A stretch of DNA of 34,052 nt from a candidate division WOR-3 bacterium (GTDB lineage Bacteria; Hydrothermota; Hydrothermia; LBFQ01): the NCBI GenBank assembly GCA_027050205.1, contig JALUCS010000087.1, forward strand, positions 1 through 34,052. Reading direction: 5' to 3'. The notes below the pieces were generated by a model. It had not been told where the DNA came from, ran no database searches, and saw only the letters and a list, made by a program, of their open reading frames with translations. Both the position numbers and the translations under genes were made by a program. This document shows positions 6,630 to 33,033 of this stretch, piece after piece; within the stretch, counting starts at the first letter, position 1; every line of letters begins with the position of its first letter.

Positions 6630-6637
6630 AAGCGGGT

Positions 6638-6643
6638 ATTATA
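6638..6643 (-). promoter_or_regulatory. -10 box TATAAT, 8 nt before ATG 6629
   Basis: CCCCAGTATAAT-ACCCGCTT-ATG. Confidence 0.75.
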
Positions 6644-6764
6644 CTGGGGGCGGCATCTCCGTACCGCCCATCCAACCTATCTCACCGTATGGTCAGCAGG
6701 GTACGGTGCTGTATGATGGGGTAAATTACCATAAGCGGGAGAGGGCGGTTTCTCCACCGATTGC

Positions 6765-7072
6765 CTACCTCCCAATCCGATGGGAGAAGTTCCTATAAAC
6801 TTCACCGTCGTTTCGCGGCCCAACCTTTGTTATGATGACGATATTCTCAACTACAAGGCATATCACCCTCCAACGGTGGGAAACTTTTATCCTGTAATAC
6901 TCATATTTACTACCCTTCATTTTCTTGACTTTATGATGCTGTCTGAACTCGTTAATATCTTTACAATCCTCAATTATTTCTTTAGCTTTTTCAATGGCTT
7001 TGAGTTCCTCTTTTGATAGTTTCCCTTTTTCAATATGCTTTTTTATTTTTTTTTACTGTATCGCCATTCCAT
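6765..7072 (-). pseudogene. RelE/ParE-superfamily toxin interrupted by a frameshift at an A9 tract (pseudogene, slippage-dependent gene or sequencing indel)
   Basis: ATG 7072 MEWRYSKKK-stop; one extra A at 7046-7054 gives 102 aa ...VKKMKGSKYEYYRIKVSHRWRVICLVVENIVIITKVGPRNDGEVY..., a typical RelE pattern; absent from ORF track. Confidence 0.8.
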
Positions 7073-7102
7073 AATTTTTAAGTGAATTTTTTAATTTTCC
7101 GA

Positions 7103-7831
7103 TTATACCCTGATTTCTTCCTCATCCTCCTCTTTAACCTCCTTCAACATCTCAACCTCCCCCCACATCATAACGGCCTCATCAAGGGACCACTCAAGAG
7201 CATTGCGGAGTTTCTCCATCAGGGCCTCATCTCCCTCCTCAACGGTGGAGAGTATGCGGGCGATAAGGACGGCCCCTCCGGTATAGGCGAAGAGCTCCGA
7301 CAGATAGTCTGGGTCAAACCCCTCCGTAATAGTGAAGTTTGCCAACCCCTCCGCGAGTACGACCTCCAACAACCTGATCACCTCCCCCACCGCTTTCCTA
7401 TTCTTCTCCCCCATCATCAACCGTACTACGGACATTGGATCGTCTTGGGTGATGAGTTCCTTGAACCACTCTGTGATGGTCTCCCTGTTCCTCTCTATCC
7501 ACCGCCGAGGATCCCCAGAAACCAAGAGTTGGATGGAGAGGTTTGAGGTTTCGTTGAAGATTTTTAAATTTTTTGTGTGGTATTCTCTCAAAATTTTTAT
7601 CAAATATTTACCAGCCATTTTACCCACCTTTTCCCCTACCATTTCCTCAACCACCCTCCTTACTATCGTTTCATTCAACACGATATGCGCCTCCCGTCTT
7701 GAATTGGGCATAACAACAACGACCCCTCTACGTGGTCTAAACGCCATCCTTACCACTTCCCTCTGACCCTCTTTTCCTCGCATGCTTTCCGGTTTTAGAA
7801 AATCTATCAAACTCTTACGATTCGCTCCCAC
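7103..7831 (-). CDS. Hypothetical helical protein, candidate antitoxin of the downstream RelE-like toxin
   Basis: 242-aa ORF, acidic C-terminus (EMLKEVKEEDEEEIRV), 30 nt upstream of toxin ATG; TAAAAT (7838-7843) 6 nt before GTG. Confidence 0.65.
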   Translation of the reverse strand: MGANRKSLIDFLKPESMRGKEGQREVVRMAFRPRRGVVVVMPNSRREAHIVLNETIVRRVVEEMVGEKVGKMAGKYLIKILREYHTKNLKIFNETSNLSIQLLVSGDPRRWIERNRETITEWFKELITQDDPMSVVRLMMGEKNRKAVGEVIRLLEVVLAEGLANFTITEGFDPDYLSELFAYTGGAVLIARILSTVEEGDEALMEKLRNALEWSLDEAVMMWGEVEMLKEVKEEDEEEIRV

Positions 7832-10488: not shown

Positions 10489-10496
10489 AAGCGGCT

Positions 10497-10502
10497 ATTA
10501 TA
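10497..10502 (-). promoter_or_regulatory. -10 box TATAAT, 8 nt before rpsU ATG
   Basis: TTCCCCAGTATAAT-AGCCGCTT-ATG. Confidence 0.75.
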
Positions 10503-10553
10503 CTGGGGAAGGTTTGCCGGTTCCCGGTAGGTGGGAGGGGACGGCTCACTACC

Positions 10554-10627
10554 CTTCCAAAAACGGGGGATTACACTGATGAAATGATAGCCCCTATGAC
10601 CGTACGTTCAAAAAACTGAAAGGCACA
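10554..10627 (+). repeat. Two isolated copies of the 22-bp intergenic unit
   Basis: CTTCCA-AAAAC-GGGGGA-TTACA (10554) and GTTCAA-AAAAC-TGAAAG-GCACA (10606). Confidence 0.55.
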
Positions 10628-11266
10628 ATCCGGGGAATTCTATGCCGACGAACTTTTAAATGTATGCACCACTCCATCCGTAAAATGGGAGAATTTTTGG
10701 GATAACTAACAATAACCCATAAAATATTGCATAAAATCTGTATAATTCATCGGAATTACGTTGGCGGAATGGGTATTACGCCGGTAGGATGACGCTCCAT
10801 CTATCGCCTGACACAACGCCCTTCCGAATCCAACGGCCCCCGGAAGCACACAATCCAAAGGCCGGAAACCACATTTCAACCCGAAGCTCATCCTTAAGGG
10901 GGGTCATAGAAATCCGGGATTCTGCTGATCGGATAGTTATTGTTTTATAGTCTCATCAGACGATCGGAATTTATCACAGAATTTCCGAAGATTTAATAAT
11001 ATAACTACACATTCTAACAATTTTTGTGAAGAATTTTTATATCTTGTCCCCTTTCCTGTCCCACCAAAGTTCGGAAGCCCTATAGAACCATAACCTATGC
11101 GAACTCGGTCGGCTTAGTGTCCCCCATCCCCTACGCCCCCCTTTCAGGAAATTGTGGGAAATGGCAATCCAAGTTCCCGGAGGACACATCACCCCATCCG
11201 CCAAATACCGGCGCCCGCAATACGGGACTTGGAGTCCTTAACTTACGTTAACTAACCTTTCGGCCG

Positions 11267-11272
11267 TAGAAT
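11267..11272 (+). promoter_or_regulatory. -10 box TAGAAT, 9 nt before dnaK ATG
   Basis: CCGTAGAAT-TCCCACCCT-ATG, no SD. Confidence 0.7.
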
Positions 11273-11281
11273 TCCCACCCT

Positions 11282-19427: not shown

Positions 19428-21849
19428 CGGGTGTTATTTTACCGGCGACAGCCTCGTTCAGGGGGACATCGTAGAACAGGCCCCTGAAGAGTACAACGTT
19501 CCCCCTGACGTCCTCGCTTACGGCCACGCTCACCTCGTACTCCCTGCCGCCCACCTTGAGGAGGGCCTTGGCTCCGTCCTTGAGGCCCGAGGACTGGGCC
19601 AACTCTCTGCTTACGAAGACGGTCTTCTCCTTGACGAAGGGCTTGTGTATCCTGTTCCGGAAGGCGTAGTAGGAGCCTTTGTAGATGTCGGGGACGTGGA
19701 GGAGGAGGGTACCCTCCCTAAGCTCTCCCTTAACAGGCTCGTAGCCCTCGGCGGAGAAGGTGTAGCGGGCGAGGGGGTAGCGGTAGGCCCTCTTGAGTTT
19801 GGCGATGGTGGGTACGTAGTCGGGGTAGGGCCTCTCCTCGTAGGGCATCTCGTAGGGGTCAAACTCCAGATCCTGATAGACGAGGACGTTCCTCTTCATC
19901 TCGTTGAAGACGTCCCGCGCACTCCTCCACGGGGCGTTCCCGCCGAGGCGGTTTATGAGGCTCTTGAATATCCACCAGGCGGGGCGACTCCCGGCGTAGG
20001 GCCAGAGGGCGTCCTTGCCGTACTGCACCCTCCCCTCAAGGTTGGTGCGGGTGCCATCCTCCTCGTAGGGGACGGTTATGGGCAGGACGGCGGAGGCGTA
20101 CTCTGTAGAGGGATCCCAGAAGGAGGTCATAACGACCACGAAGGGCGTATTCTCAAGGGCCTTTACGACGAGGTCCCTGTCGTAGTACTCGTAGAGTGGC
20201 TCAACCTCCCAGAGGAAGAGGACGTCTATCTCACCGCTGGCAGCCTTCCGGAGGATCTCCCCCGTGGTGGCACCGTCGGGGAAGGGCGAGAACTCAACGT
20301 CCACGAACCCCTGACCGTTGGGTGCGGTGCGCAGGAGGAGGAACTTCACCCTGTCGTCCAAAGCGGAGAGGTGGGCCAGGTTGGACTGGGCCTCCGCCTC
20401 AAGGTCGTCCGGGAAGATGATGAGGGGAGCCTTGGCCTCTCTGAAGGCCTCAACGGCTCCCGCGTACTTGGGGTCGGGATTCTCGCTGTGGAACTGGTAG
20501 GAGGCGTAGGTCTCCCCACCGGCGGGTATCTCCACCCACTCGGCCCAGCCGTCCCGTACGTACCTCTCCCTGTAGGGGTTGAGGACGAAGATCCTGGCGC
20601 CCCTGCGGGCGGCCCTTACGAGACGGATACCGATGCCGGGGACGGTCTCCCTGACGTCCCCGAAGATGAATATGGCGTCCGCCCTGTCTATGTCTGCCAC
20701 CTTGCCCGTGGAGGCGGAGTAGCCGACGGCCCTCCGTACGGGGTCCTCCTTGAAGGCCACGTGAGGCCTACGGAAGTCTATGTCGTAGGTCTCCAGAATC
20801 TCCTTGAAGAACTTCCGCCCGGCGTAGGCGGCCTCGTTGGTACCCCTTCCACCGGCCAGAGCGGCCACCCTCTTACCCTTGAGGTTCTCGGCCACCCAGT
20901 CCAGGGCGAGGCTCCAGTTCACCTTCACCCACTTACCGTCCTTCGCCTTGAGGTGGGGGTAATCCACCCTGTCCTTGTGGTTATAGACGTACTCGTGGGA
21001 GAACCTGTCCCTGTCCGTAATCCAGAACTCGTTGACGTCGGGGTTCTCCCTTCCGTTTATCCGTACTATCTTATGCACGTCCTCCCTCTTGCCACCCTTC
21101 ACCATCTTACCCTTGGAGTAGGGTTTGCGGCTTATGACCTCAACGGTGACGTTGGCTCCGAGGGAGTCCTCCGGGCTTATGGCCGGGACCCTCTCAAGGT
21201 TCCACGGGCGGGTGTAGTACTTGTAATCCGCCCCGTTTATGGCCCCGACCGGGCAGACCTCTATGAGGTTCCCGGAAAACTCGTTGTTGATAAAGCGGTC
21301 CTTCTCCGGACCGAAGACGGTGTACCAACCCCTGTCAAACATTGACCAGTCCCTTCCACCCCCGATGGTCCAGTAGAAGGTGGAACACTTGAAGCACTGG
21401 ATGCACCTGTGAGGCTCAAGGTCAAAGTAGGGGCCGGCGTCGTGCTTGGGGAAGAGCCTCTTGGGGAAGGCGTACTTGCTCGTCGTGGGGCCGAAGAGGT
21501 AGGTTATCTCCTGGAGGTCGCACTCCCCACCCTTGTCGCATATGGGGCAGTCAAGGGGGTGGTTCGTCAGGAGTAGGGCCACGACCGACCTCTGGGTCTC
21601 CTTCACGGGGTCGGTATTCGTCCATACCTTCATCCCGTTCTCCGCCCTCGTGGCACAGGAGGGTTTGAGTCCCCTCCTCCCCCTCCTGTCCTCCACCTCA
21701 ACGAGGCAGACCCTACACCCCGCCCACACGGGGAGCTTCGGGTGATAACAAAATACGGGGATCCTCTCCCCGTTTCTCCAGGCAACGTCAAGGATAGTTT
21801 CCCCTTCTTTGAACTCAACCTCCTTACCGTTCAGCAAGAGCTTGGCCAT
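19387..21849 (-). CDS. nuoG: NADH-quinone oxidoreductase subunit G
   Basis: FCYHPKL..GCRVCLVE, HPLDCPICDKGGECDLQE, RCIQCFKC..EVCPVGA; start MAKLLLNGKEV at 21849, 7 nt after TATAAT (21857-21862). Confidence 0.92.
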   Translation of the reverse strand: MAKLLLNGKEVEFKEGETILDVAWRNGERIPVFCYHPKLPVWAGCRVCLVEVEDRRGRRGLKPSCATRAENGMKVWTNTDPVKETQRSVVALLLTNHPLDCPICDKGGECDLQEITYLFGPTTSKYAFPKRLFPKHDAGPYFDLEPHRCIQCFKCSTFYWTIGGGRDWSMFDRGWYTVFGPEKDRFINNEFSGNLIEVCPVGAINGADYKYYTRPWNLERVPAISPEDSLGANVTVEVISRKPYSKGKMVKGGKREDVHKIVRINGRENPDVNEFWITDRDRFSHEYVYNHKDRVDYPHLKAKDGKWVKVNWSLALDWVAENLKGKRVAALAGGRGTNEAAYAGRKFFKEILETYDIDFRRPHVAFKEDPVRRAVGYSASTGKVADIDRADAIFIFGDVRETVPGIGIRLVRAARRGARIFVLNPYRERYVRDGWAEWVEIPAGGETYASYQFHSENPDPKYAGAVEAFREAKAPLIIFPDDLEAEAQSNLAHLSALDDRVKFLLLRTAPNGQGFVDVEFSPFPDGATTGEILRKAASGEIDVLFLWEVEPLYEYYDRDLVVKALENTPFVVVMTSFWDPSTEYASAVLPITVPYEEDGTRTNLEGRVQYGKDALWPYAGSRPAWWIFKSLINRLGGNAPWRSARDVFNEMKRNVLVYQDLEFDPYEMPYEERPYPDYVPTIAKLKRAYRYPLARYTFSAEGYEPVKGELREGTLLLHVPDIYKGSYYAFRNRIHKPFVKEKTVFVSRELAQSSGLKDGAKALLKVGGREYEVSVAVSEDVRGNVVLFRGLFYDVPLNEAVAGKITPVDSINAVGSTVQS

Positions 21850-21856
21850 GGAGGGT

Positions 21857-21862
21857 ATTATA
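21857..21862 (-). promoter_or_regulatory. -10 box TATAAT for nuoG
   Basis: TTCCCCAGTATAAT-ACCCTCC-ATG. Confidence 0.75.
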
Positions 21863-22150
21863 CTGGGGAAGGGAAGGACGAAACCCTGCGATGTCGCCAC
21901 ACCTCCCCCAAATCGGCCGGGGCGAACGTTGGGGATGGAGGCGCACGTATCACCGGAAGCGGAGCGATCGGGTACGTCCAGGATAGTCTCGTTTCGGTTG
22001 CGGATCAAGGATCGCCCGGATATTTGCCGGAAAATAGGAGGCTCCTGTTAGCAAATTATTCAAAAAATTGCGGGTAATCTCAAGAATCTTCAAAATTTTA
22101 CGCGATATATAACCATTCCATCCCTCATTTACGTATTTGACCGATGGGGT

Positions 22151-22216
22151 TGTGAAAAATCTTTAATGGGGTTTTCAAGAATCTTAAAGTGAGATTTGCA
22201 ATTTCTTACAGTTTTT
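22151..22216 (+). repeat. Degenerate 3 x 22-bp tandem array
   Basis: TGTGAA-AAATC-TTTAAT-GGGGT / TTTCAA-GAATC-TTAAAG-TGAGA / TTTGCA-ATTTC-TTACAG-TTTTT. Confidence 0.5.
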
Positions 22217-22337
22217 ATGGAATCCTGTTCTATCTCGTATGAGTCTTTCCTATTAGTTGGGCTGTCCTTCAACGGCATTTTGGACTTATAGGTGAGTTGT
22301 CCCATATTGGAGTAATTCTCCAATTTACCACAATATC

Positions 22338-22381
22338 CCTTCAAAAGTCGAAAGTCGTATTTCAATATCCCCGTTCTTCCT
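22338..22381 (+). repeat. 22-bp unit plus degenerate follower
   Basis: CCTTCA-AAAGT-CGAAAG-TCGTA-TTTCAAT, close to 22529 CCTTCA-AAAAC-CGAAAG-TCGGA-CTTCAAT. Confidence 0.65.
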
Positions 22382-22528
22382 ACGATAAATTTTGAACGAC
22401 GTCCGATGCGGACAACTTTTGGAATATTTGCCCCGTATTTTGGGGAATACAAAGCACAATTGGTGAAAAATCGGCAGAAAATTGGGCATTATGCTAATAA
22501 GGAGGACGTCCTAACCGATGCTCTACTA

Positions 22529-22818
22529 CCTTCAAAAACCGAAAGTCGGACTTCAATGAGCTGATGGTCGCACTTCAGCTCCCGTTGCAAGGTTTTGAAC
22601 AGCATAGGGTTCAACTCCTTCCGGAACTTTGCTTCAAACGGAGGTCGCCAAATCCCTATTGAGAACCGAATGACTGGACGTGGCCCTACGGTTGGATAAG
22701 TTCGTAGGGTCTTACCCGTTTGCTGGGACTACAGGGCAATCACCACTCCATCAGCGGAAACCCAAAACGGAGGGTGCGAGGTACAATTGCCGGAAGGCAA
22801 ATACGGGTTAAGGTCCCG
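22529..22818 (+). repeat. Modular intergenic element, copy A (22-bp units, TTGAAC-N8-GTTCAA block, CCATCAGCG block, GGAAGGCA..AATACGGG..GGTCCCG block)
   Basis: Blocks 22567-22626 and 22768-22818 align with 30019-30090 and 30099-30152. Confidence 0.8.
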
Positions 22819-23066
22819 TCGGAGATGACCTCATGGCCGAATACGAGGAATCACAATCGGAACTTCAGGACCCCCTACGACGGGCTTTCAACGGCATTAC
22901 CCTACGATGCGGATCCTCGTAGGCTACCCCCTTACAACGGTTCTGACGTCAAGGCTTCCGTGGTTGTTGCTTGCCCTTTGGGACCTCGACAAGTGTCTCA
23001 CCTTTCAACGTATCCTTGTAAAAGTGCAACACCTCGCCCCCACAGGGGCGATCCACCGTACCCCAG

Positions 23067-23072
23067 TATAAT
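23067..23072 (+). promoter_or_regulatory. -10 box TATAAT, 9 nt before cysS ATG
   Basis: CCCCAGTATAAT-CCCCTTCGT-ATG. Confidence 0.75.
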
Positions 23073-23081
23073 CCCCTTCGT

Positions 23082-24398
23082 ATGTATCTCTACAACACCC
23101 TGACCGGCAAGAAGGAGGAGTTCGCCCCCTTGAGGGACAACACCGTCCGCGCCTACGTCTGTGGTATGACCGTTCAGGACAGCCCCCACGTCGGCCATAT
23201 GAGGGTCTTCACCGTATTTGACGCCCTCTTCCGCTTCTTCAAGGCGCTCGGATGGGAGGTCAGGGCGGTCCAGAACTTCACGGATATAGACGACAAGATC
23301 ATAACCAAGGCCAGAGAGGAGGGGATAGACTGGCGGTTTCTGGCCGACAGGTACGAGATGGAGTACAGGGAGGTCGCCCGCCGGATGAACTTCCTCCCCT
23401 TAATGCACCCAAGGGCCACCCAGCACATACAGGAGATTGTTGAGATGATAGGTGCCATAATTGAGCGGGGGTACGCGTACGAGAGCGGCGGGAACGTCTG
23501 GTTCTCCGTCCGTAAGTTCGCCGAAGATTACGGGTACGGTAAGCTGGCAAAGATGTCCCTTGACGAGATGTTAGCCGGGGCGAGGGTGGAGCCTGACCCC
23601 ACCAAGAGGGATCCCCTTGACTTCGCCCTCTGGAAGGCCCACAAGGAGGGGGAGCCTTACTGGTACAGCCCCTGGGGGAAAGGCAGGCCCGGATGGCACA
23701 TTGAATGCTCGGCTATGTCCAGTAAGCACCTCGGCCTCCCCCTTGACATCCACGGCGGTGGCAGGGACCTGATATTCCCCCACCACGAGGACGAGATAGC
23801 CCAGACCGAGGCGGCGACGGGCCAGACCTTCGCCCGCTTCTGGATGCACGTGGGACTCCTCACCTTCCGTGGTGAGAAGATGTCCAAGTCCCTGAAGAAC
23901 TACTTCGTAGCGAGGGAAATCCTTGAGGACTACTCCCCGGACACCCTCCGGCACCTCCTCCTCTCCGCCCACTACCGGAGCGACCTTGAGTTCTACCCGG
24001 AGAAGTTGGACGAACATGCGAGGGCCGTAGCCCGCCTTAGGGATGCCATCGCCGGCATAGAAGAGGACGGGGAAGAGGACGAGGGTCTGAAGGAGGAGAT
24101 ATACGGGGCCTTGAAGGACGACTTCAACACCCCGGAGGCCTTCGGCCTCATCTTCTCGGCGTTGGATAACCCGACGCCGGCGAAACTAAGGACGGTCAAG
24201 GGGGTTATGGAGATGCTCGGCTTCCGCCTTAGCGAGGAGGAGGAGGACGACACCCTCCAAAGGCTGGTCAAACTCCGTGAGGAGGCCCGGAGGGAGAAGA
24301 ACTACGACCTCGCCGACCGCATAAGGGACGTCCTCAAGATGGTGGGCGTGGAGCTGATGGACGTACCGGGAGGGACGAAGGTCCGAAAGGTCAGGTGA
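23082..24398 (+). CDS. cysS: Cysteine--tRNA ligase
   Basis: [52 protein letters not shown]. Confidence 0.97.
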
Positions 24399-25827
24399 GG
24401 GAGTAGCGCTGCCTTAGCACCTTCAGGGTGGCGTCTATCAGCCCCGTAAAGAGGAGGTCGGCGTCCCTCTCCCGGACATATTCGTCCATACCCTTTATCT
24501 CCTCCCCTATCCGCCTTATCTCCTCGGCCCCTGCGTAGTCTTTGAACCTCTCGTACAGGCCGATGTGGGCGTCCTTCTTCACTATCGCCTCTATGCCGTC
24601 CAGAACCTGCCTGTGGGCGGTACCCTCCCATATCGGCAGTATCATAGCCTCCCTCAAAAGCCTCTCAACCGGGTACTCCTCAAGTACCCCCATCCCGCCG
24701 TGGACTTCCATCGCCCACTTCGCCGCACTTACGGAGACCTCGGCCGTCCAGTACTTGGCCATGTGGGCTATGAGACGGAAGGTGTGGTAGGCCTGTGAGT
24801 ACCTCGGCTTCTCAAGATAGACCCCGTCTAAGGCCTCAACGGCCTCCCAGGCGAGGGCGAAGGCCTCCCTTACCTCCCTCCTCATATCCTCAAACTGCCT
24901 TCGTAGGAGGGGATGCTCGCTTATGTACTTTCCGAAGGCCCACCTCTTTCTGGCGAAGGTCAGGGCCTCAACCCACGCCCTGTGGGCCAGAGCCACGCTC
25001 CCCACACTGTTGGCCACGCGGGAGACGTTCAGGGCCTCAAGGATGAGGTATATACCCCACTCCTCCCGGCCGAGGAGGTAGGCTTCGGAGTCCCTCAACT
25101 CCACCTCCCCGGTGGGTACGGACCTCGTCCCTATCTTGGGCTTTATCCTCCGCACCAGATAGTTGAGGGAGCCGTCCCGCCTGTACTTCGGCAACAGGAA
25201 GAGGGCGAGGCTCCGGACTCCCTTCGGCTTCCCCTTTATCCGGGCGGCCACGACGGCCACCTCCGCCCCGACGTTGCTGGCGAAGTACTTCTCACCGTTC
25301 AGGATATAGAGGCCATCGCCTATGGGAGCGGCGACGGTCTCAACGGTGTTTCCGAGGTCGGACCCTCCTCTGGCCTCCGTCATCCAGGTCGCCCCCTGCC
25401 ATATCTCACCCTCCGTAGCGATGAGGTTTGGGAGGTACTTCTCCTTCAACTCTTCGCTCCCGTACTTGTATAAGGGCAGGGCGGTTGATATGGAGACGGT
25501 GTAGGGGCAGTAGACCCCCGGATCGTAGAAGGAGGTTATGTAGCCGAGGACGTAGAAGGGCTTCAGGCTACCCTCCTTGAAGGCCCTACCCACCACCCCC
25601 GCCCTGTATCCGGCGTATAGCATTTCCCAGTACTCCGGGGGATAGAGCAGCTCGTCTATGCGGTTCCCCCACCTGTCAAACATACGCAACTGTACGGTCC
25701 CCACACGGTCTACGGCCTCGGAGATGTACTTCCACCTTCTATCCCACTCCTCCTCGTACTTGAGATCCTCCTCCTTCACCTCTATGCCGAAGTCCTTCAG
25801 CATCCCGGACGGTCTCTCCGGAAGCAT
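24391..25827 (-). CDS. Acyl-CoA dehydrogenase family protein (AidB-like)
   Basis: GATWMTEARGGSDLG, LNGEKYFAS, KIGTRSVPTGEV, EVHGGMG, ILPIWEGT; TAAAAT (25835-25840) 7 nt before ATG. Confidence 0.9.
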   Translation of the reverse strand: MLPERPSGMLKDFGIEVKEEDLKYEEEWDRRWKYISEAVDRVGTVQLRMFDRWGNRIDELLYPPEYWEMLYAGYRAGVVGRAFKEGSLKPFYVLGYITSFYDPGVYCPYTVSISTALPLYKYGSEELKEKYLPNLIATEGEIWQGATWMTEARGGSDLGNTVETVAAPIGDGLYILNGEKYFASNVGAEVAVVAARIKGKPKGVRSLALFLLPKYRRDGSLNYLVRRIKPKIGTRSVPTGEVELRDSEAYLLGREEWGIYLILEALNVSRVANSVGSVALAHRAWVEALTFARKRWAFGKYISEHPLLRRQFEDMRREVREAFALAWEAVEALDGVYLEKPRYSQAYHTFRLIAHMAKYWTAEVSVSAAKWAMEVHGGMGVLEEYPVERLLREAMILPIWEGTAHRQVLDGIEAIVKKDAHIGLYERFKDYAGAEEIRRIGEEIKGMDEYVRERDADLLFTGLIDATLKVLRQRYSLT

Positions 25828-26550
25828 AGGGTGGATTTTAAGGCCGACTAAGTGCGGTTTTACGAAAGGCGACTGCCAATTCCATAAAGGACAACTGTAT
25901 TCAGCGTATGGAGTGATGCAACCTCCGAGGAGCCATTAGGGTGAAATTACCCGTATCGCCATTGTCAAAATCCTGAATCTGGAACACCTCACATTTTCAA
26001 AGCAAAGGATGGTCAAAATCTGTAATGGAGATTGCAATGAAGTTAGGAAGGCAGACTACGAGTTCTCCGAAATGCAAGTACCAAAGTCCAATTTTAGTTT
26101 TTGAATGTGCGTTCTACCGGCGTAGCACCGGATGCCAAATCCTTAGAGGAGGGATGCCGTACCCTATTTTGGAATGCACGGCAAGGTCGGGCGTTGTAAT
26201 ATTCGGTTCATCATCAACAAACCACACAATCTTGCAGTTTTATAATCTGAAATACCAAATTTCCGCAAAAAGTTGGTATTTTCAAAAATTCAATATTAAA
26301 ATTCACAGCGGAGATAACGCGCTGTTCGGCGTATATGCGGCCTCCAAGAGGTCGTTGGGGCGGTTTCCGAACCCTTCCGGTTTCCCGAATTACGAAGGGA
26401 ACTACGGGGACTCTGCGGCTCCCTAAATTTCCCGTAAGGTGCAAACAGTAGCCGGTATTCAAAGGATAGAGGGATTGGCAGGTTCTTGTATCTATGGGGT
26501 TGATGTAAACGTGAATACCCACCGTAATGCTGGCCTTTGAATGCAGGCTA

Positions 26551-26638
26551 TTTTCAAAATTATAAAGCCGCATTTTCAAAAACTTAAAATGTATGTTTAA
26601 AAAATTGAAAGTATGACTTTAAGATTTTGGAACCCTAC
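26551..26638 (+). repeat. 4 x 22-bp tandem array
   Basis: TTTTCAAAATTATAAAGCCGCA / TTTTCAAAAACTTAAAATGTAT / GTTTAAAAAATTGAAAGTATGA / CTTTAAGATTTTGGAACCCTAC. Confidence 0.75.
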
Positions 26639-26836
26639 AGATCCGAACGGTGTTGGGGATTAGATGCCGTCCATCGTTTTCATTTGAAGGCGTTGGACAC
26701 AGAGCATCATTCCATAAGCGTAATACCCGGTAGCCCATCTCCTCATCAGCGAAATACCAGGACAACCCCGGTTTTTGAGGGTCCCACCGACCCATATCCG
26801 AATAGGCCCTCCCATTCCCGCACCCGCCGGGTAGGG

Positions 26837-26914
26837 TTATGTTTTAAGGAGTCGGTACCCGTACAATAGGATAACCACCCAGAAGAGGAGATAGGCGGCT
26901 ACGAGATATGCCAT
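26837..26914 (-). CDS. CcmD-like small membrane protein (25 aa)
   Basis: MAYLVAAYLLFWVVILLYGYRLLKT; ATG 1 nt after the stop of the YidD-like gene; YLxAAY...W...Y pattern; below ORF-track cutoff. Confidence 0.65.
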   Translation of the reverse strand: MAYLVAAYLLFWVVILLYGYRLLKT

Positions 26915-26915
26915 A

Positions 26916-27260
26916 CTACCTCAACAGCATCCTCGGTATCTCCCTCGCGTTCGGGGCGAAGAGTTCAAGGGTATCCACCAGCTTACCGTCCTTGGAGTCG
27001 TAGATGTACCCTGCGAGCTGATGGGAGCCGGGATTGCACCTCTGGAGCCTGTCGGCCGCCATCAGGATCCCCCACACGCCGTACTTCTCAACGGCCCTCC
27101 TCCCGTACCGTGAGCAGGTGATGGGGTGGGCGAAGTTGCACACGTCGGGCTGTATGTCGGATAGGAACAGCTGATATACCCGTATCAACGCCCACGCCAC
27201 GAGCTTGGGAGGGTTCGCAGCCACATCCGGAGGGAGCGAGAGGAGGGCCACAAGCAGCAT
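26916..27260 (-). CDS. YidD-like (membrane protein insertion efficiency factor / haemolytic domain) protein
   Basis: IRVYQLFLS...CNF...TCSRY...AVEKYG...GILMAADRLQRCNP; TGATG overlap with sdhA. Confidence 0.8.
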   Translation of the reverse strand: MLLVALLSLPPDVAANPPKLVAWALIRVYQLFLSDIQPDVCNFAHPITCSRYGRRAVEKYGVWGILMAADRLQRCNPGSHQLAGYIYDSKDGKLVDTLELFAPNAREIPRMLLR

Positions 27261-29008
27261 CAGTACTTCCTCTCTACCGGCTTCCAGTAGGTTATATTCA
27301 CGGGTATGTAGTCAAACTTAGGTGAGCCGTCCTCACCCCTGAAGGCGAGGGTGTGCTTCAGCCACTTCTCGTCGTCCCTCTTGGGGAAGTCCCTGCGGAA
27401 GTGTCCGCCCCGGCTCTCCTCACGCAGGAGGGCGCCCATAGCCACGACCTCGGCCAGCTCCAGGAGGAACTCCGTCTCCAACGTGAAGATCAGGTCCGTG
27501 TTCCAGACGAGGCTCTTGTCCTTTACACCGACGTCCTTGAACCTCTTCTTCAGCTCCTTTATCTTGTCCAGAGCCTTCTCAAGGCCGTCGCGGGTGCGGA
27601 AGACACCCACGTTGAGGTCCATTGTGCGCTGCAGCTCCTTCCTTATCTTGTAGGGACTCTCCTTGCCGTCCCGGTTGAGTATCCCCTCTATCCTCTTGAA
27701 CTCCTTCTCCGCCTCCTGCAGGACCTCCTCCTCCTTAAACTTGAACTCGTTGGCGAGGGCGTACTGGGCGGCCAGCTCTCCGGTTATGCGGCCCCATACG
27801 AGGCACTCCGCCGTGGAGTTGGAGCCGAGACGGTTGGCACCGTGGAGGGACAGACAGGCGGCCTCACCGGCCGTGAAGACGTTCTCCACCACCCTCTCAC
27901 CGTCCCACATAGCCTGTCCGTCTATGTTGGCGTGGATCCCGCCCATTGAGTAGTGGGCCACCGGCCTGACGGGTATAGGCTCCTCTATGGGGTCCACGCC
28001 GGCGAACTTTATGGCCAGCTCCCGTATGAGGGGCAGCCTCTCCAGTATCTTCGCCCTTCCGAGGTGGGTCAGGTCCAGATGTACGTAGTCAAGGCCGTCC
28101 GGTCCCTTGAAGCCTCTCCCCTCCTCTATCTCCGTCATCTCCGCACGGGAGACTATGTCCCTCGGAGCCAATTCCATCTTACTGGGGGCGTACTTCTTCA
28201 TGAACCTCTCGCCCTTGTTGTTCCGGAGGTACCCCCCTTCCCCTCTGGCTCCCTCGGTTACCAGTATCCCGGAGGGTACGAGGCCCGTAGGGTGGAACTG
28301 GATGAACTCCATATCCTTGAGGGGTATCCCCACCCTGTAGGCCATCGCCAGACCGTCCCCCGTAACGGAGTGGGAGTAGGTGGTGAAGCCGTAGAGCCTC
28401 CCGGCCCCTCCGGTCGCTATTATCAGGACCTTCCCCATTATCAGGACGGCCTCACCGTGGACGAGGTCTATGGCCGTGAGGCCAGCGAACTTCCCGTCCT
28501 TCATTATTATGTGGGTGGCGAAGACCTCGTCGTGGCGGTCGTAGTTGGAGAACTTCATCAGGGTGTCGTACAGGGTCTGCATCTCAAAGAAGCCCGTCTT
28601 GTCCTGGGCGAAGACCGTACGGAAGAAGGAGTGTCCGCCGAAGGGACGGGTGTTTATCCGGCCGTCAGACTTCCTTGACCAGGGTATCCCCCAGTGATCC
28701 AGAAGGAGGATCTCGTAGGGCATCATCTTGACGAAACGGAACACCACGTCCTGATCGGCGAGAAAGTCGCTCCCCTTTATCGTGTCCCAGGCGTGAAGTT
28801 CAAAGGAGTCTCCCTCCTCCGGCCTCAAAACGGCCGCCGTACCCCCCTCCGCACACACGGAGTGGGCGCGCATGAGCTGTACCTTGGAGACTATACCGAC
28901 CTTTACCTTGTCTCCGAACTTACGTGCAATCTCGGTAGCCGCCCTCAAACCGGCCAACCCCGCGCCGAGGATGACGACGTCGTACCTATGGACCCTTGAA
29001 ATCTTCAT
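27260..29008 (-). CDS. sdhA: Succinate dehydrogenase / fumarate reductase flavoprotein subunit
   Basis: GAGLAG, RAHSVCAEGG (covalent-FAD His), QFHPT, TEGARGEGG, HYSMGG, HGANRLGSNS, ESRGGH; TAGAAT (29018-29023) 9 nt before ATG. Confidence 0.94.
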   Translation of the reverse strand: MKISRVHRYDVVILGAGLAGLRAATEIARKFGDKVKVGIVSKVQLMRAHSVCAEGGTAAVLRPEEGDSFELHAWDTIKGSDFLADQDVVFRFVKMMPYEILLLDHWGIPWSRKSDGRINTRPFGGHSFFRTVFAQDKTGFFEMQTLYDTLMKFSNYDRHDEVFATHIIMKDGKFAGLTAIDLVHGEAVLIMGKVLIIATGGAGRLYGFTTYSHSVTGDGLAMAYRVGIPLKDMEFIQFHPTGLVPSGILVTEGARGEGGYLRNNKGERFMKKYAPSKMELAPRDIVSRAEMTEIEEGRGFKGPDGLDYVHLDLTHLGRAKILERLPLIRELAIKFAGVDPIEEPIPVRPVAHYSMGGIHANIDGQAMWDGERVVENVFTAGEAACLSLHGANRLGSNSTAECLVWGRITGELAAQYALANEFKFKEEEVLQEAEKEFKRIEGILNRDGKESPYKIRKELQRTMDLNVGVFRTRDGLEKALDKIKELKKRFKDVGVKDKSLVWNTDLIFTLETEFLLELAEVVAMGALLREESRGGHFRRDFPKRDDEKWLKHTLAFRGEDGSPKFDYIPVNITYWKPVERKY

Positions 29009-29071
29009 AGGCCTGTAATTCTACCCCTGTGGGCCGGCCTATGTGCATCCAACCGTAGAATTGGAACTTCT

Positions 29072-29707
29072 ATGCGTCGCCTCGCCCTATCGCTGGCAGT
29101 AGTGGTGTTGGGGGCTGTGGCCTTCGGATGCGGAAAGGGACTCAACTACGCCCACCGTTTCCCCTACGGTAAGGGGTACGTCCTCGTAAATCAGAACGGG
29201 GACACGGTCAAATTGGACGCCCTGAAGGGTAAGGTCCTCGTCGTCGGCTACATCTACACCCACTGCCCGGACATCTGCCCCTTCATAACCTCAAACATGA
29301 AGAAGATCCAGAAACTCGTTAACTCCGACCCCTCCTTGAAAAACAAGGTCCTCTTCGTGAGCATATCCTTTGACCCCCGCAGGGACAAACCGGAGGTCCT
29401 GAAAGAGTACGCCAGACTTTACAGGGTGGATACGTCCAACTGGATATTCTTAACGGGGGACCGCTACACCATAGACTCCCTCATGAAGGACCTCGGGATA
29501 GTGGTGGAGGTAGGTCCGATGGACATAGAGGTGAGGACGGACACGGTGGACGGGAAGGTAATAACGGACACCATATACAGCTACGAGATCGTCCATACGG
29601 ACAGGATACACGTCGTAGACCCCAAAGGCAACATCGTGGACTACTTCAAGGGGAGTGAGGCCGACCCCCGGAAGGTTCTGAAGGCGGTAAAGAAGGCGGC
29701 GGGGTAG
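29072..29707 (+). CDS. SCO1/SenC copper chaperone lipoprotein
   Basis: Lipobox-like AFG-C, YTHCPDICP, ISFDPRRD, conserved His in IVHTD; TAGAAT (29056-29061) 10 nt before ATG. Confidence 0.92.
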   Translation: MRRLALSLAVVVLGAVAFGCGKGLNYAHRFPYGKGYVLVNQNGDTVKLDALKGKVLVVGYIYTHCPDICPFITSNMKKIQKLVNSDPSLKNKVLFVSISFDPRRDKPEVLKEYARLYRVDTSNWIFLTGDRYTIDSLMKDLGIVVEVGPMDIEVRTDTVDGKVITDTIYSYEIVHTDRIHVVDPKGNIVDYFKGSEADPRKVLKAVKKAAG

Positions 29708-29794
29708 TTATCCACCTCCCATAGCCTTACCGGCGAGGGCGAGGATGAAGAGGAGTATGAAGATGGCGGCGGCGATGGAGAGGTATAGGGATCC
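29708..29794 (-). pseudogene. Start-less single-TM coding remnant (GSLYLSIAAAIFILLFILALAGKAMGGG*)
   Basis: Host-like codons, hydrophobic helix, stop abuts the SCO stop; in-frame TAG upstream and no start codon. Confidence 0.4.
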
Positions 29795-29840
29795 CTACCC
29801 GTTGTCTGGGGTTCCATTCGCCGTTTGACGGGCGGATGCA

Positions 29841-29950
29841 CTTTCAAAATCTGAAACTTGTCTTTTAATAAACTGATAATCCCTATTCAAGAAACATAAA
29901 GAACCACTTTCATAAACTGAAAGTCCGTCTTTAAAATTCCGCATTCTACG
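29841..29950 (+). repeat. 5 x 22-bp tandem array with dyad core
   Basis: CTTTCAAAATCTGAAACTTGTC / TTTTAATAAACTGATAATCCCT / ATTCAAGAAACATAAAGAACCA / CTTTCATAAACTGAAAGTCCGT / CTTTAAAATTCCGCATTCTACG. Confidence 0.8.
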
Positions 29951-30212
29951 TTTGATAAGGCCGCAGGGCAATTCTCACCCCATTAGCGTAATATCAACCG
30001 GATTTCCAAAAACGGGTAGTCGCACTTCAGGATCGTTGCAACCCTTATGGCAAGATTTTGAACGGCATCATGTTCAACTCCCTTCCGGAATCGGGTTTCG
30101 GAAGGTGCAAAGTGCAGTTGATGGAAGGCACTAATACGGGTTCAAGGTCCCGCCATCCGCATCGTTCCAACGACCCTTTGAAAGGGTAGTCACCCCATCA
30201 GCCGAATATACC
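29951..30212 (+). repeat. Modular intergenic element, copy B
   Basis: Same blocks as 22529-22818 in a different order. Confidence 0.8.
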
Positions 30213-30288
30213 AAAAATGAAGGAATTCGGACGCCGATTCTACGGCGAAAAGCGTCCGGTGAGCCTATCGGGGGTAGAATCCCGGCCT

Positions 30289-33033
30289 ATGCCCGGTCTT
30301 AAGGACTTCGCACGCAGGCTGAAGACAAAAGACGGAGATCTGACCTACTACTCCGTTCCGGACTTCCTCTCCTCCGTGGGGGTGAACCCCGACAGGGTCC
30401 CCTACTCCATAAGGGTTCTGGTGGAGAACGTCCTCCACAGCCTTGACGGCTTTCTAGTAACGGACGAGCATCTGAACATCGTCTCCAGCTGGAGGCCCCA
30501 GACGGAGCGCAAGGAGATAGCCTACATGCCCGCTCGTATCGTCCTCCAGGACTTCACGGGCGTTCCCGTCGTCGTTGATATTGCGGCCATGCGCGACGCC
30601 ATGAAGGCCCTCGGGGGAGACCCCAAACGTATAAACCCCATAAAGCAGTCCGACCTCATCATAGACCACAGCGTACAGGTGGACTACTTCGGAACCCTCT
30701 ACGCGTACATCTACAACGTGCGCCTTGAGATGGAGCGGAACCGGGAGAGGTACCAGCTCCTCAAGTGGGGCCAGCAGGCCTTCTCCAACTTCAGGGTCGT
30801 CCCTCCCGGCAAGGGCATAATCCACCAGGTGAACCTTGAGTACCTCGGCCGGGTGGTGATGGTGAGGGACGGCGTGGCCATATACGACACCCTCATAGGG
30901 ACGGACAGCCACACCACAATGATAAACGGCCTCGGAATCCTCGGCTGGGGTGTGGGCGGCATAGAGGCGGAGGCCGTGATGCTCGGCCAGCCCTACTACA
31001 TGCTCCTGCCAGAGGTCGTAGGGGTGAGGCTCGTAGGGGAGCTTCCGGAGGGGGCGACGGCCACCGACCTCGTCCTGACCATAACGGAGGCCCTTCGTAA
31101 GAAGGGGGTCGTGGGTAAGTTCGTTGAGTACTTCGGTCCCGGTCTGGCCAACCTCTCCCTCCCCGACAGGGCCACTCTCGCCAACATGTCCCCGGAGTAC
31201 GGCTCCACGGTCGGGTACTTCCCGATTGATGAGAATACCCTCGCGTACCTTAGGGGGACCGGAAGGGAGTCCGTCGTCCCGTTGGTGGAGGCCTACGTGA
31301 AGGAGCAGGGTATGTTCTGGAGTCCGGAGGCCCCGGAGCCGGAGTACACGGACGTCGTTGAGATAGACCTCTCCAAGATAGAGCCGAGCATAGCCGGACC
31401 CAAGCGTCCCCAGGACCGCATACCCCTGCGGGAGGCCAAGGAGAGGTTTCAGGTTATCCTCAAGGAGGAGTTCCACAAGGAGGACGTACCTACGGCCGAC
31501 GAGGTCATAAGACAGCTTGAAGAGTTTGAGAGTGAGGGCGGAGGACACGTCTTAACCGAGAAGGACGTCGCCCTCGTCGTTTACGAGGGGGAGGAGTTCG
31601 TCCTTAGCCACGGCTCCGTCGTCATAGCCGCCATAACCTCCTGTACCAACACGTCCAACCCCTCCGTTATGATAGGGGCGGGCCTCCTGGCAAAGAAGGC
31701 CGTTGAGTACGGCCTGCAGACCAAACCCTACGTGAAGACCAGCCTGGCGCCGGGGTCGGCCGTCGTAACGGACTACCTGACGCAGTCCGGTCTGATGCCC
31801 TACCTTGAGGCCCTCCGCTTCCACTTAGTGGGGTACGGATGTACGACGTGCATAGGGAACGCCGGACCTCTGCCGGAGCCTATTGAGAGGGCCATCAAGG
31901 AACACGACCTTGTGGTCGCCTCCGTCCTCTCCGGGAACCGGAACTTTGAGGCCCGCATCCACCCCCTCGTAAAGGCCAACTTCCTCGCCTCCCCGATGTT
32001 AGTCGTGGCCTACGCCATAGCCGGCCGCATAGACATAGACTTTGAGAAGGAGCCGATAGGGTACGACCCCAACGGCAAACCCGTCTATCTGCGGGACATA
32101 TGGCCCTCCCAGGCGGAGATTAGGGACTACATAAACCGCTACGCCCTCAAACCGGAGAACTTCAAGAGGAAGTACGCGGACATCTTCAAAGGTACGGAGG
32201 AGTGGGAGAAGTTGGACGCCCCTATGGGCGTACTCTACGACTGGGACCCCAACTCCACGTACATCCAGAGGCCTCCCTACTTTGACGACTTCAAGCTTGA
32301 GCCGGAGCCTCCAAAGGACATAATCGGGGCCTACGTCTTAGTCAGGGGTGGGGACACCGTCACCACCGACCACATCTCCCCCGCCGGCCCCATAGCCCCC
32401 GACAGCCCTGCTGGTCAGTACCTTCTGTCCAAGGGCGTCCCTCCGGAGAAGCTCCACACCTACGGCGCCCGCAGGGGTAACCACGAGGTTATGGTGCGGG
32501 GGACCTTCGCAAATGTGCGCTTCCGCAACTACCTGTTTGAGGAGGAGGTCAGGGGCTGGTGGACGATATACGTCCCCACCGGTGAGAAGATGACCACCTA
32601 CGACGCTGCTATGAGGTACAAGGCGGAGGGCCACCCCGTTATCGTCCTCGCCGGCAAGGAGTACGGCACCGGCTCCTCAAGGGACTGGGCTGCCAAGGGT
32701 CAGGCCCTGCTCGGCGTGAGGGCGGTCCTCGCCGAGTCCTTTGAGAGGATCCACAAGAGCAACCTCGTCGGTATGGGGGTCCTGCCCATCCAGTTCAAGC
32801 CCGGTGAGGGTGCGGCCACCTACGGCCTGACCGGCCATGAGAGGTACGACATCCTCGGCATAGAGGACATCTACCCCAACAAAGTCCTGAAGGTGGTCGC
32901 CCACAGGAAGGACGGAAGCAAGGTTGAGTTTGAGGCCATAGCCCGCCTTGACTCTCCCGTTGAGGTGGAGTACTACAGGCACGGCGGCATCCTACCGTAC
33001 GTCTTGAGGAAGATATACAAGGGCGAGCTGTGA
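30289..33033 (+). CDS. acnA: Aconitate hydratase A
   Basis: LQDFTGVP, DHSVQVD, GTDSHTTM, AAITSCTNTSNP, GYGCTTCIGN, SGNRNFE, TTDHISPAG, GSSRDWAAKG; start 30289 is 8 nt after TAGAAT (30275-30280). Confidence 0.97.
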   Translation: MPGLKDFARRLKTKDGDLTYYSVPDFLSSVGVNPDRVPYSIRVLVENVLHSLDGFLVTDEHLNIVSSWRPQTERKEIAYMPARIVLQDFTGVPVVVDIAAMRDAMKALGGDPKRINPIKQSDLIIDHSVQVDYFGTLYAYIYNVRLEMERNRERYQLLKWGQQAFSNFRVVPPGKGIIHQVNLEYLGRVVMVRDGVAIYDTLIGTDSHTTMINGLGILGWGVGGIEAEAVMLGQPYYMLLPEVVGVRLVGELPEGATATDLVLTITEALRKKGVVGKFVEYFGPGLANLSLPDRATLANMSPEYGSTVGYFPIDENTLAYLRGTGRESVVPLVEAYVKEQGMFWSPEAPEPEYTDVVEIDLSKIEPSIAGPKRPQDRIPLREAKERFQVILKEEFHKEDVPTADEVIRQLEEFESEGGGHVLTEKDVALVVYEGEEFVLSHGSVVIAAITSCTNTSNPSVMIGAGLLAKKAVEYGLQTKPYVKTSLAPGSAVVTDYLTQSGLMPYLEALRFHLVGYGCTTCIGNAGPLPEPIERAIKEHDLVVASVLSGNRNFEARIHPLVKANFLASPMLVVAYAIAGRIDIDFEKEPIGYDPNGKPVYLRDIWPSQAEIRDYINRYALKPENFKRKYADIFKGTEEWEKLDAPMGVLYDWDPNSTYIQRPPYFDDFKLEPEPPKDIIGAYVLVRGGDTVTTDHISPAGPIAPDSPAGQYLLSKGVPPEKLHTYGARRGNHEVMVRGTFANVRFRNYLFEEEVRGWWTIYVPTGEKMTTYDAAMRYKAEGHPVIVLAGKEYGTGSSRDWAAKGQALLGVRAVLAESFERIHKSNLVGMGVLPIQFKPGEGAATYGLTGHERYDILGIEDIYPNKVLKVVAHRKDGSKVEFEAIARLDSPVEVEYYRHGGILPYVLRKIYKGEL

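Follow-up and report, generated by a model that had tools for sequence, protein, structure and literature searches.

As described in PMC12428005, IS1 generates duplications of 8 or 9 bp and makes its transposase InsAB' at an A6C frameshift motif, and IHF and H-NS have been implicated as host factors in IS1 transposition in E. coli. An ISAba3-like element of the IS1 family with 24-bp terminal inverted repeats (TIRs) and 8-bp duplications is described in PMC6382973, a report from which MITEs with outward promoters are also known. With the IS1 family, as represented in these two accounts by E. coli IS1 and the ISAba3-like element, the system analyzed here has in common an InsA-like zinc-finger/HTH ORF followed in the -1 frame by a DDE_Tnp_IS1 ORF, with a run of A residues where the two meet, a small IS (906 bp) whose termini start with GG, 8-bp target-site duplications (TSDs) and AT-rich insertion targets (PMC12428005, PMC6382973). 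In contrast to these systems, the elements described below belong to many families with unalignable interiors and have one four-unit module of 22-bp units in common.

Two further comparisons are instructive. The BOX elements of Streptococcus pneumoniae are built as boxA-(boxB)n-boxC with a variable number of tandem internal units, and like the present elements they are modular, intergenic, non-coding dispersed repeats with a tandem short unit between conserved end modules. In contrast to BOX, the unit is here 22 bp long, its copy number is nearly fixed (mostly 3-4), the ends are IS1-type TIRs with 8-bp TSDs and a candidate transposase is present; we regard this as likeness and not as membership. 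The TnsB sites of Tn7, the MuA sites and the iterons of the R6K gamma origin share with our arrays the unit length of ~22 bp, which corresponds to about two helical turns, and the tandem direct arrangement. They differ in that our arrays are internal, apparently dispensable for transposition and present in dozens per genome, and a search of this genome gave neither an rve nor a Rep_3 protein.

The stretch of DNA under study (the window) comprises one complete contig of 34 kb from the 2.05-Mb assembly of an uncultured vent bacterium (135 contigs, 57% G+C, 93.5% complete). Since the assembly is fragmented all copy numbers are lower bounds, and the gene calls used in genome-wide counts are crude ORF calls. 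The window carries housekeeping genes (nuoD, dnaK, a nuoG-like gene, cysS, the genes for acyl-CoA dehydrogenase and aconitase, sdhA and SCO1) and four long spacers with a G+C content down to 38-47%. A BLAST comparison with the genome showed that these spacers are mosaics of dispersed repeat families of ~200-280 bp with 70-92% identity. Another part of the window, 6900-7830, is likewise AT-rich (34-44% G+C); it holds a 242-aa ORF without Pfam match and three weak unit-like matches and has no repeat copies elsewhere in the genome.

A sequence-only reading of the window had reported contiguous 22-bp units with a dyad core in the long spacers. We find the five units at 29841-29950, which score 16-25 bits with the position weight matrix (PWM) described below, as well as the four units at 26551-26638, the two units at 22529-22572 and the single copies at 10554, 10606, 22338, 26237 and 30003; the three-unit array at ~22150-22216 is also present, in a register about 1 bp off the claimed start at 22151. 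Unit 4 of the five-unit array (29907) indeed forms a perfect CTTTCA-N5-TGAAAG dyad with a 6-bp stem and a 5-nt loop. No unit of the window lies inside a called ORF, as had been noticed, and genome-wide 532 of 583 PWM matches fall outside the crude ORF calls. Tandem Repeats Finder recovers only one array of the window (22144-22185, period 22) and misses the others, as the similarity of their units stays below about 70%.

The PWM was built from the units listed in the sequence-only reading and applied with a threshold of ≥14 bits. It gives 583 matches in the whole 2.05-Mb genome, and same-strand matches are spaced by 22, 44 and 66 bp in 171, 108 and 51 cases and by 88 bp in one case. As control we used 20 dinucleotide shuffles of the AT-rich islands. 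The islands outside the window contain 521 matches compared with a shuffle mean of 71 (maximum 85), and 110, 68 and 30 same-strand pairs at exactly 22, 44 and 66 bp, where the shuffles have none at any of the three distances. The autocorrelation at lag 22 which had been proposed as a check is raised, but only weakly (z 9.2) and mixed with the period-3 signal of AT-rich coding DNA. Because of this confounding the raw lag identity was replaced by the spacing of PWM matches in comparison with shuffles. After merging the calls of both strands 333 arrays or single units remain, 85 of them multi-unit; among the 103 multi-unit array calls most span 3-4 units and five units are rare. The motif occurs with identical period across the 2.05 Mb, and the proposal of one shared motif that recurs in many long spacers, in arrays with a strict period of 22 bp, is supported. 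The arrays are real and highly non-random. The uniform plus orientation which had been noted holds for the window and not for the genome, with 23 units in forward and 22 in reverse orientation; the fourth unit of the array at 26551-26638 scores higher on the minus strand, and the fourth unit of the module described below generally reads about equally well on the opposite strand.

The arrays are, as had been concluded, not CRISPR arrays: their units are contiguous and divergent and there are no unique spacers. Genuine CRISPR arrays lie on other contigs, at contig ends (C97 at 84.7-87.6 kb, C98, C30, C131, C78 and C12); they have a conserved leader and a repeat of ~30 nt, and they bear no relation to the 22-bp units. 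Paralogous ORFs of ~185-210 aa, three to six in tandem, are found on C104, C73, C122, C97, C49, C47, C93 and C109. The long multi-copy repeats of the genome are these CRISPR arrays and tandem paralogous genes, and we rejected them as candidate IS copies.

The dyad core, perfect in unit 4 at 29907, is weak on the genome-wide scale and shows no covariation. Watson–Crick pairing at the six symmetric pairs (observed/expected of 575) amounts to 205/190, 395/395, 415/419, 256/247, 243/231 and 319/322. The strongest positions of the unit are T2, T3, A6, A8, A9, A15 and A16, and the unit is better described by an asymmetric T3/A5/A3 pattern than by a true dyad. With dyad positions that do not covary the case for a dimeric binder is weak. 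The proposed phasing of the A-tracts was not confirmed either, the strongest A/T harmonic within the unit being 7.3 bp and not the 10.5-11 bp that correspond to once per helical turn; A/T tracts that recur every ~7.3 bp do not support A-tract phasing or classical intrinsic curvature.

The arrays are carried by dispersed non-coding elements of 125-920 bp with ~20-bp inverted termini and 8-bp TSDs (Table 1). Alignments including the flanks show the same ~20-bp inverted terminus at both ends of families A, B and C, and the ends are sharp. A strict terminus pattern matches 52 times as compared with 2 times in the reversed genome, and a terminus PWM at ≥14 bits yields 204 matches versus 8 in the control. 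In 42 nearest-neighbour pairs of termini at most 600 bp apart, the 8-bp direct repeats outside the termini match in 8 of 8 positions for four pairs and in 7 of 8 for three. Three further perfect duplications flank an element of 906 bp on contig C31, one of 797 bp on C60 and the outer element of the window at 25896-26758, which brings the perfect TSDs to seven. Most pairs show none, and most older copies have lost the TSD. As a perfect 8-mer is expected by chance with only ~1.5e-5 in each case, we interpret the flanking repeats as TSDs. Most of the 49 terminus pairs enclose elements of 61-488 bp. The elements thus have common TIRs, a TSD of fixed length, a small, non-coding and multi-copy body and an autonomous partner with the same termini, as is characteristic of MITEs.

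Table 1. Array-bearing and TIR-bounded repeat elements in the long spacers of the window.
Feature	Position	Strand	Evidence and remarks
Five-unit array, internal module of family A	29841..29950	+	conserved unit by unit in 14 family A copies
Family A MITE-like element, ~214 bp	29782..29995	+	BLAST/alignment, 14 copies, 73-83% identity
Family B element, left-truncated	30004..30210	+	two array units first (30003-30045); right terminus 30210
Outer TIR-bounded non-coding element, 863 bp	25896..26758	+	perfect 8-bp TSD, 25888-25895 = 26759-26766
Nested family C MITE, 274 bp, inside the outer element	26454..26727	+	array 26551-26638; TSD 7/8
Composite of repeat modules	22132..22763	+	weak termini, 16.0 and 14.4 bits
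Family E TIR-bounded element, 438 bp, upstream of dnaK	10772..11209	+	termini 25.2 and 29.9 bits

Family A has 14 near-full copies and 20 matches in all in this genome, and its copies on C91 and C110 are flanked by perfect 8-bp TSDs. The copy in the window ends with a right terminus at 29995 (20.7 bits in the terminus PWM), while its left terminus is partly deleted. Family B, to which the region 22500-22763 is related, has two or three units at its start; full-length copies on C104, C15 and C83 open with the common terminus, and the copy C15:6161-6409 has an 8/8 TSD. The interiors of family B (30050-30200 and 22585-22720) show conserved small palindromes, hairpin-like segments and some paired changes between copies. 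A sigma-54 promoter in family B was dropped by eye on account of wrong spacing, and so was a tRNA-like structure, ARAGORN finding only tRNA-Glu. For family C eight copies could be aligned, which are up to 92% identical. The composite region contains family F with the array at ~22150-22216 and the unit at 22338; the units at 22529-22572 belong to a B2-type element which it also contains (22500-22763). The family E element has no unit inside; the single units at 10554 and 10606 lie to its left. Across the genome a unit or a terminus is found in 144 of 329 spacers of at least 300 bp (crude calls), and 71.5 kb of the 297.5 kb of AT-rich island DNA has at least two other copies.

The 906-bp IS on C31 (G000:C31:1269-2174) has termini of the same type and an 8/8 TSD. 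Its ORF A encodes a protein of 122 aa with the Zn-ribbon_InsA domain and an HTH motif, and ORF B matches DDE_Tnp_IS1 (PF03400) with 28.1 bits at a cut-off of 24.1. The match to PF03811 stays below the cut-off (24.2 versus 26.1 bits), and that to NF050000 (IS1/IS1595 zinc-binding domain) is well above it (46.6 versus 28 bits). The NCBIfam model NF033558 ("IS1 family transposase") is covered by both reading frames, positions 1-78 by ORF A (67.1 bits) and 91-199 by ORF B (50.6 bits), neither ORF alone reaching the cut-off of 100 bits. ORF B lies in the -1 frame relative to ORF A with an A8 run in the overlap. This ORF arrangement matches that of IS1, and an IS1-family InsAB' is predicted to arise by -1 frameshifting at the A8 run. 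The fragmented assembly contains one intact transposase copy, a degenerate second copy of the IS on C40 and IS fragments at contig ends; a search with ORF B in a set of genome contigs gave no relative. The remark that no cognate gene is visible is correct for the window; elsewhere the genome has a related gene, an IS1-family transposase whose element ends match those of the array carriers. Since the carriers have the same ends as this IS and 8-bp TSDs, they are, as far as sequence comparison goes, IS1-family-derived MITEs.

The genome also contains a solo InsA-like zinc-finger/HTH gene (86 aa, C61:464-724) that is not followed by a DDE ORF. Three congeners have this gene at 90-95% identity and another genus has it at 77%, and it looks like a domesticated transposase DNA-binding domain. 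As the cognate binder of the units this protein was rejected, being conserved in relatives that have no arrays.

The carriers are confined to this genome among the relatives compared. Units with at most two mismatches number 45 here and 0 in the control, and each of 30 relatives has 0-5 of them, compared with 0-6 in reversed-pattern controls. For the terminus pattern the counts are 20 here and 0-2 in the relatives. Family A has no match in six congeners or 24 further relatives, and a comparison of family C with 271 other genomes of the phylum, in which two candidates per genome were scored, gave no real match; a marginal family C match in one of these turned out to be plain low-complexity AT-rich DNA. 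The suggestion of a conserved host system such as a nucleoid organiser, a partition system or a global regulon is therefore not borne out, since the motif is not enriched in the 30 relatives, and it is also contradicted by congeners which do not have the long spacers. From these genomes the IS1-derived MITE burst appears to be specific to this lineage.

The spacer upstream of dnaK illustrates the difference. It measures 751 bp here and at most 80 bp in four congeners, where the coding DNA of the neighbour gene follows. DnaK itself is 98-100% identical in these four genomes, and the homology upstream of the gene starts only at 11231, ~50 bp before the start codon. The gene order upstream of dnaK differs among the genomes and no exact empty site was seen. 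A terminus-like sequence upstream of dnaK in the genomes G002 and G004 proved to be part of an unrelated 153-aa ORF. For the region 21000-31500 no empty site was bridged among the contigs listed from four DNA runs; read depth over the repeats of this region is not locus-specific, as paralogous copies align too.

When 72 arrays are stacked without gaps on their first unit, one rank-ordered consensus of four units emerges (~88 bp), with flanks of several unrelated types, and 52 of the 103 multi-unit array calls fall into one BLAST cluster. This module is conserved across families far better than the DNA between module and termini. It lies 45-100 bp inside the elements, the ends of which consist of a different, ~20-bp inverted repeat. 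The idea of transposase ends, one of the options of the sequence-only reading, was thus right in the link to transposable elements and wrong in that the arrays are internal and not ends. For 38 of the 103 multi-unit array calls no recognisable terminus is found within 700 bp; either the carriers of many arrays are decayed, or the module occurs also outside IS1-type elements.

Several elements do without the module. The IS on C31 and the family B copy C15:6161-6409 have perfect TSDs and no unit inside, and the short elements of 61-181 bp are mostly free of units. In an array-less relative of family A (C1:2039-2136) the left arm is joined to the last unit, and the array-less joint 29826>29944 occurs in contigs of three DNA runs (X1, X2 and X4), which shows that members of one family may have the module or lack it. 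Because array-less elements with perfect duplications and an array-less family A relative exist, we infer that the module is not required for transposition. We know of no described IS1-derived MITE with such a module, and none was found in searches of the open-access literature.

We consider it probable that the arrays are a passenger module of IS1-derived MITEs, including a possible role as landing site. The MITEs would be mobilised in trans by the IS1-family transposase InsAB', made by -1 frameshifting, and the module would be a passenger that is not needed for cutting and pasting. Its probable origin is the tandem duplication of an AT-rich unit in an ancestral MITE, followed by exchange of the module between MITE families. 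At most, the AT-rich DNA with its T3/A5/A3 pattern might offer a platform to a DNA-binding protein, architectural or otherwise. The elements would insert upstream of compact promoters of the leaderless type and make the spacers longer while leaving the genes intact. The module is better conserved than its surroundings, and pure hitch-hiking is therefore insufficient; its conservation suggests selection on the module or exchange between families.

Unit DNA may also be a favoured landing site for further IS1-type insertions, a preference which would explain the mosaic nature of the long spacers. The family C element of the window is nested in the outer element. Among the 204 termini a unit lies within 40 bp outside the terminus in 33 cases, compared with 6.3% of random positions in AT-rich islands, and at no fewer than nine junctions whose flanks are unrelated a half-unit directly abuts a terminus. 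Of the roughly 10 TSDs that are best preserved, only 2 are located in unit-like DNA. The target preference for units is modest.

With regard to the promoters of the window, hexamers resembling a -10 box are found 7-9 nt 5' of the start codon of dnaK, the aconitase gene, the acyl-CoA dehydrogenase gene and three minus-strand genes (11231-11281, 30260-30289, 25828-25860 on the minus strand, 6630-6650, 10489-10510 and 21849-21870). These start codons have no Shine–Dalgarno-like spacing. This arrangement suggests leaderless-type promoters. Upstream of dnaK the hexamer and a small palindrome are conserved in the four congeners. The aconitase ORF is probably over-long in the region 30217-30289, since the homology to the congeners begins at residue 17-20 and the congener start aligns with the ATG at 30290.

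A different reading, which we hold to be possible though doubtful, sees in the module a selected multi-site binding platform for one DNA-binding protein, the MITEs merely spreading it. Candidates would be an architectural host protein resembling IHF/HU or H-NS, or else a zinc-finger/HTH protein of InsA type, and the platform would aid the assembly of the transpososome or silence or regulate the elements. One consensus in 72 arrays with unrelated flanks and the strict 22-bp period would agree with a bound protein, as would the implication of IHF and H-NS in the transposition of IS1 in E. coli (PMC12428005). In units 22 bp downstream of a strong anchor the core positions keep information and the spacer positions 19-22 have almost none; this anchor test is free of selection bias, but the mixing of units of different rank could give low spacer information too. 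On the other hand, unit-less elements have transposed, there is no covariation between the dyad positions, and the two half-sites differ. The motif is moreover not enriched in the relatives that keep the solo InsA-like gene at 90-95% identity, and the InsA-like protein consequently does not track the arrays.

That the 88-bp module is a cassette under its own selection, either as a multi-site protein docking platform exchanged between the MITE families or as a separate mobile unit targeted or captured by MITEs, seems unlikely to us.

It is improbable that the arrays are co-opted regulatory DNA, that is outward promoters, UP-like elements or operators for dnaK, the cysS operon and the aconitase gene. 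All arrays of the window lie upstream of genes on the plus strand and point to them, three weak sigma-70-like matches are found in 29700-30260 as compared with 0.5 in shuffles, and MITEs with outward promoters have precedent in the report cited above (PMC6382973). Genome-wide, however, there is little orientation bias, with 46 arrays toward a gene start and 30 toward a gene end (crude calls), and in tandem gene contexts the numbers are 20 and 18. The array at 26551 is located between two minus-strand genes, and a promoter scan of 25800-26930 stays at chance level (2 found versus 1.8 expected). In addition, the same conserved promoter region of ~50 bp drives dnaK in the four congeners, where there is no array.

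We give very little weight to the view that the units are nucleic-acid hairpins in the form of a structured non-coding RNA, REP-like stem–loops or cruciform DNA. The consensus is quasi-palindromic, the unit at 29907 has its perfect 6-bp stem and 5-nt loop, and the downstream modules of family B contain conserved small palindromes; yet the pairing at the six symmetric pairs is what the base frequencies lead one to expect, no Rfam family matches at the gathering threshold or with E up to 10, and for a thermophile such stems would be short and rich in A+T. The duplications made by Tn7 and Mu measure 5 bp, and an explanation of the arrays as replication-origin iterons or multi-site transposon ends of the Tn7 or Mu type, with only the 22-bp unit length and the tandem direct arrangement in its favour, can practically be dismissed in view of about 85 multi-unit arrays in 2 Mb, their internal and not terminal position, duplications of 8 bp and the finding that the 93.5%-complete assembly gives no match to Rep_3 (PF01051) or rve (PF00665), where control genomes do.

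If the passenger module of IS1-derived MITEs does bind a protein, it would provide a clean natural example in which an array of binding sites is spread by transposons. The unusual point is the rank-ordered module of four 22-bp units which appears to be kept across MITE families with otherwise unrelated interiors. Should the module instead be a docking cassette of its own, a new chromosome-wide protein-binding or regulatory layer would have been acquired in a single lineage-specific burst, the MITEs having delivered the module in front of dozens of promoters.

For the annotation of this genome it follows that such spacers are not to be taken as promoters, origins or RNA genes and that ORFs which extend into them are likely mis-started, the aconitase ORF (30217 versus ~30290) being an example. 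That a compact 2-Mb genome of a thermophile contains hundreds of AT-rich spacers of 0.5-1 kb would be explained by the burst of IS1-derived MITEs in this lineage.
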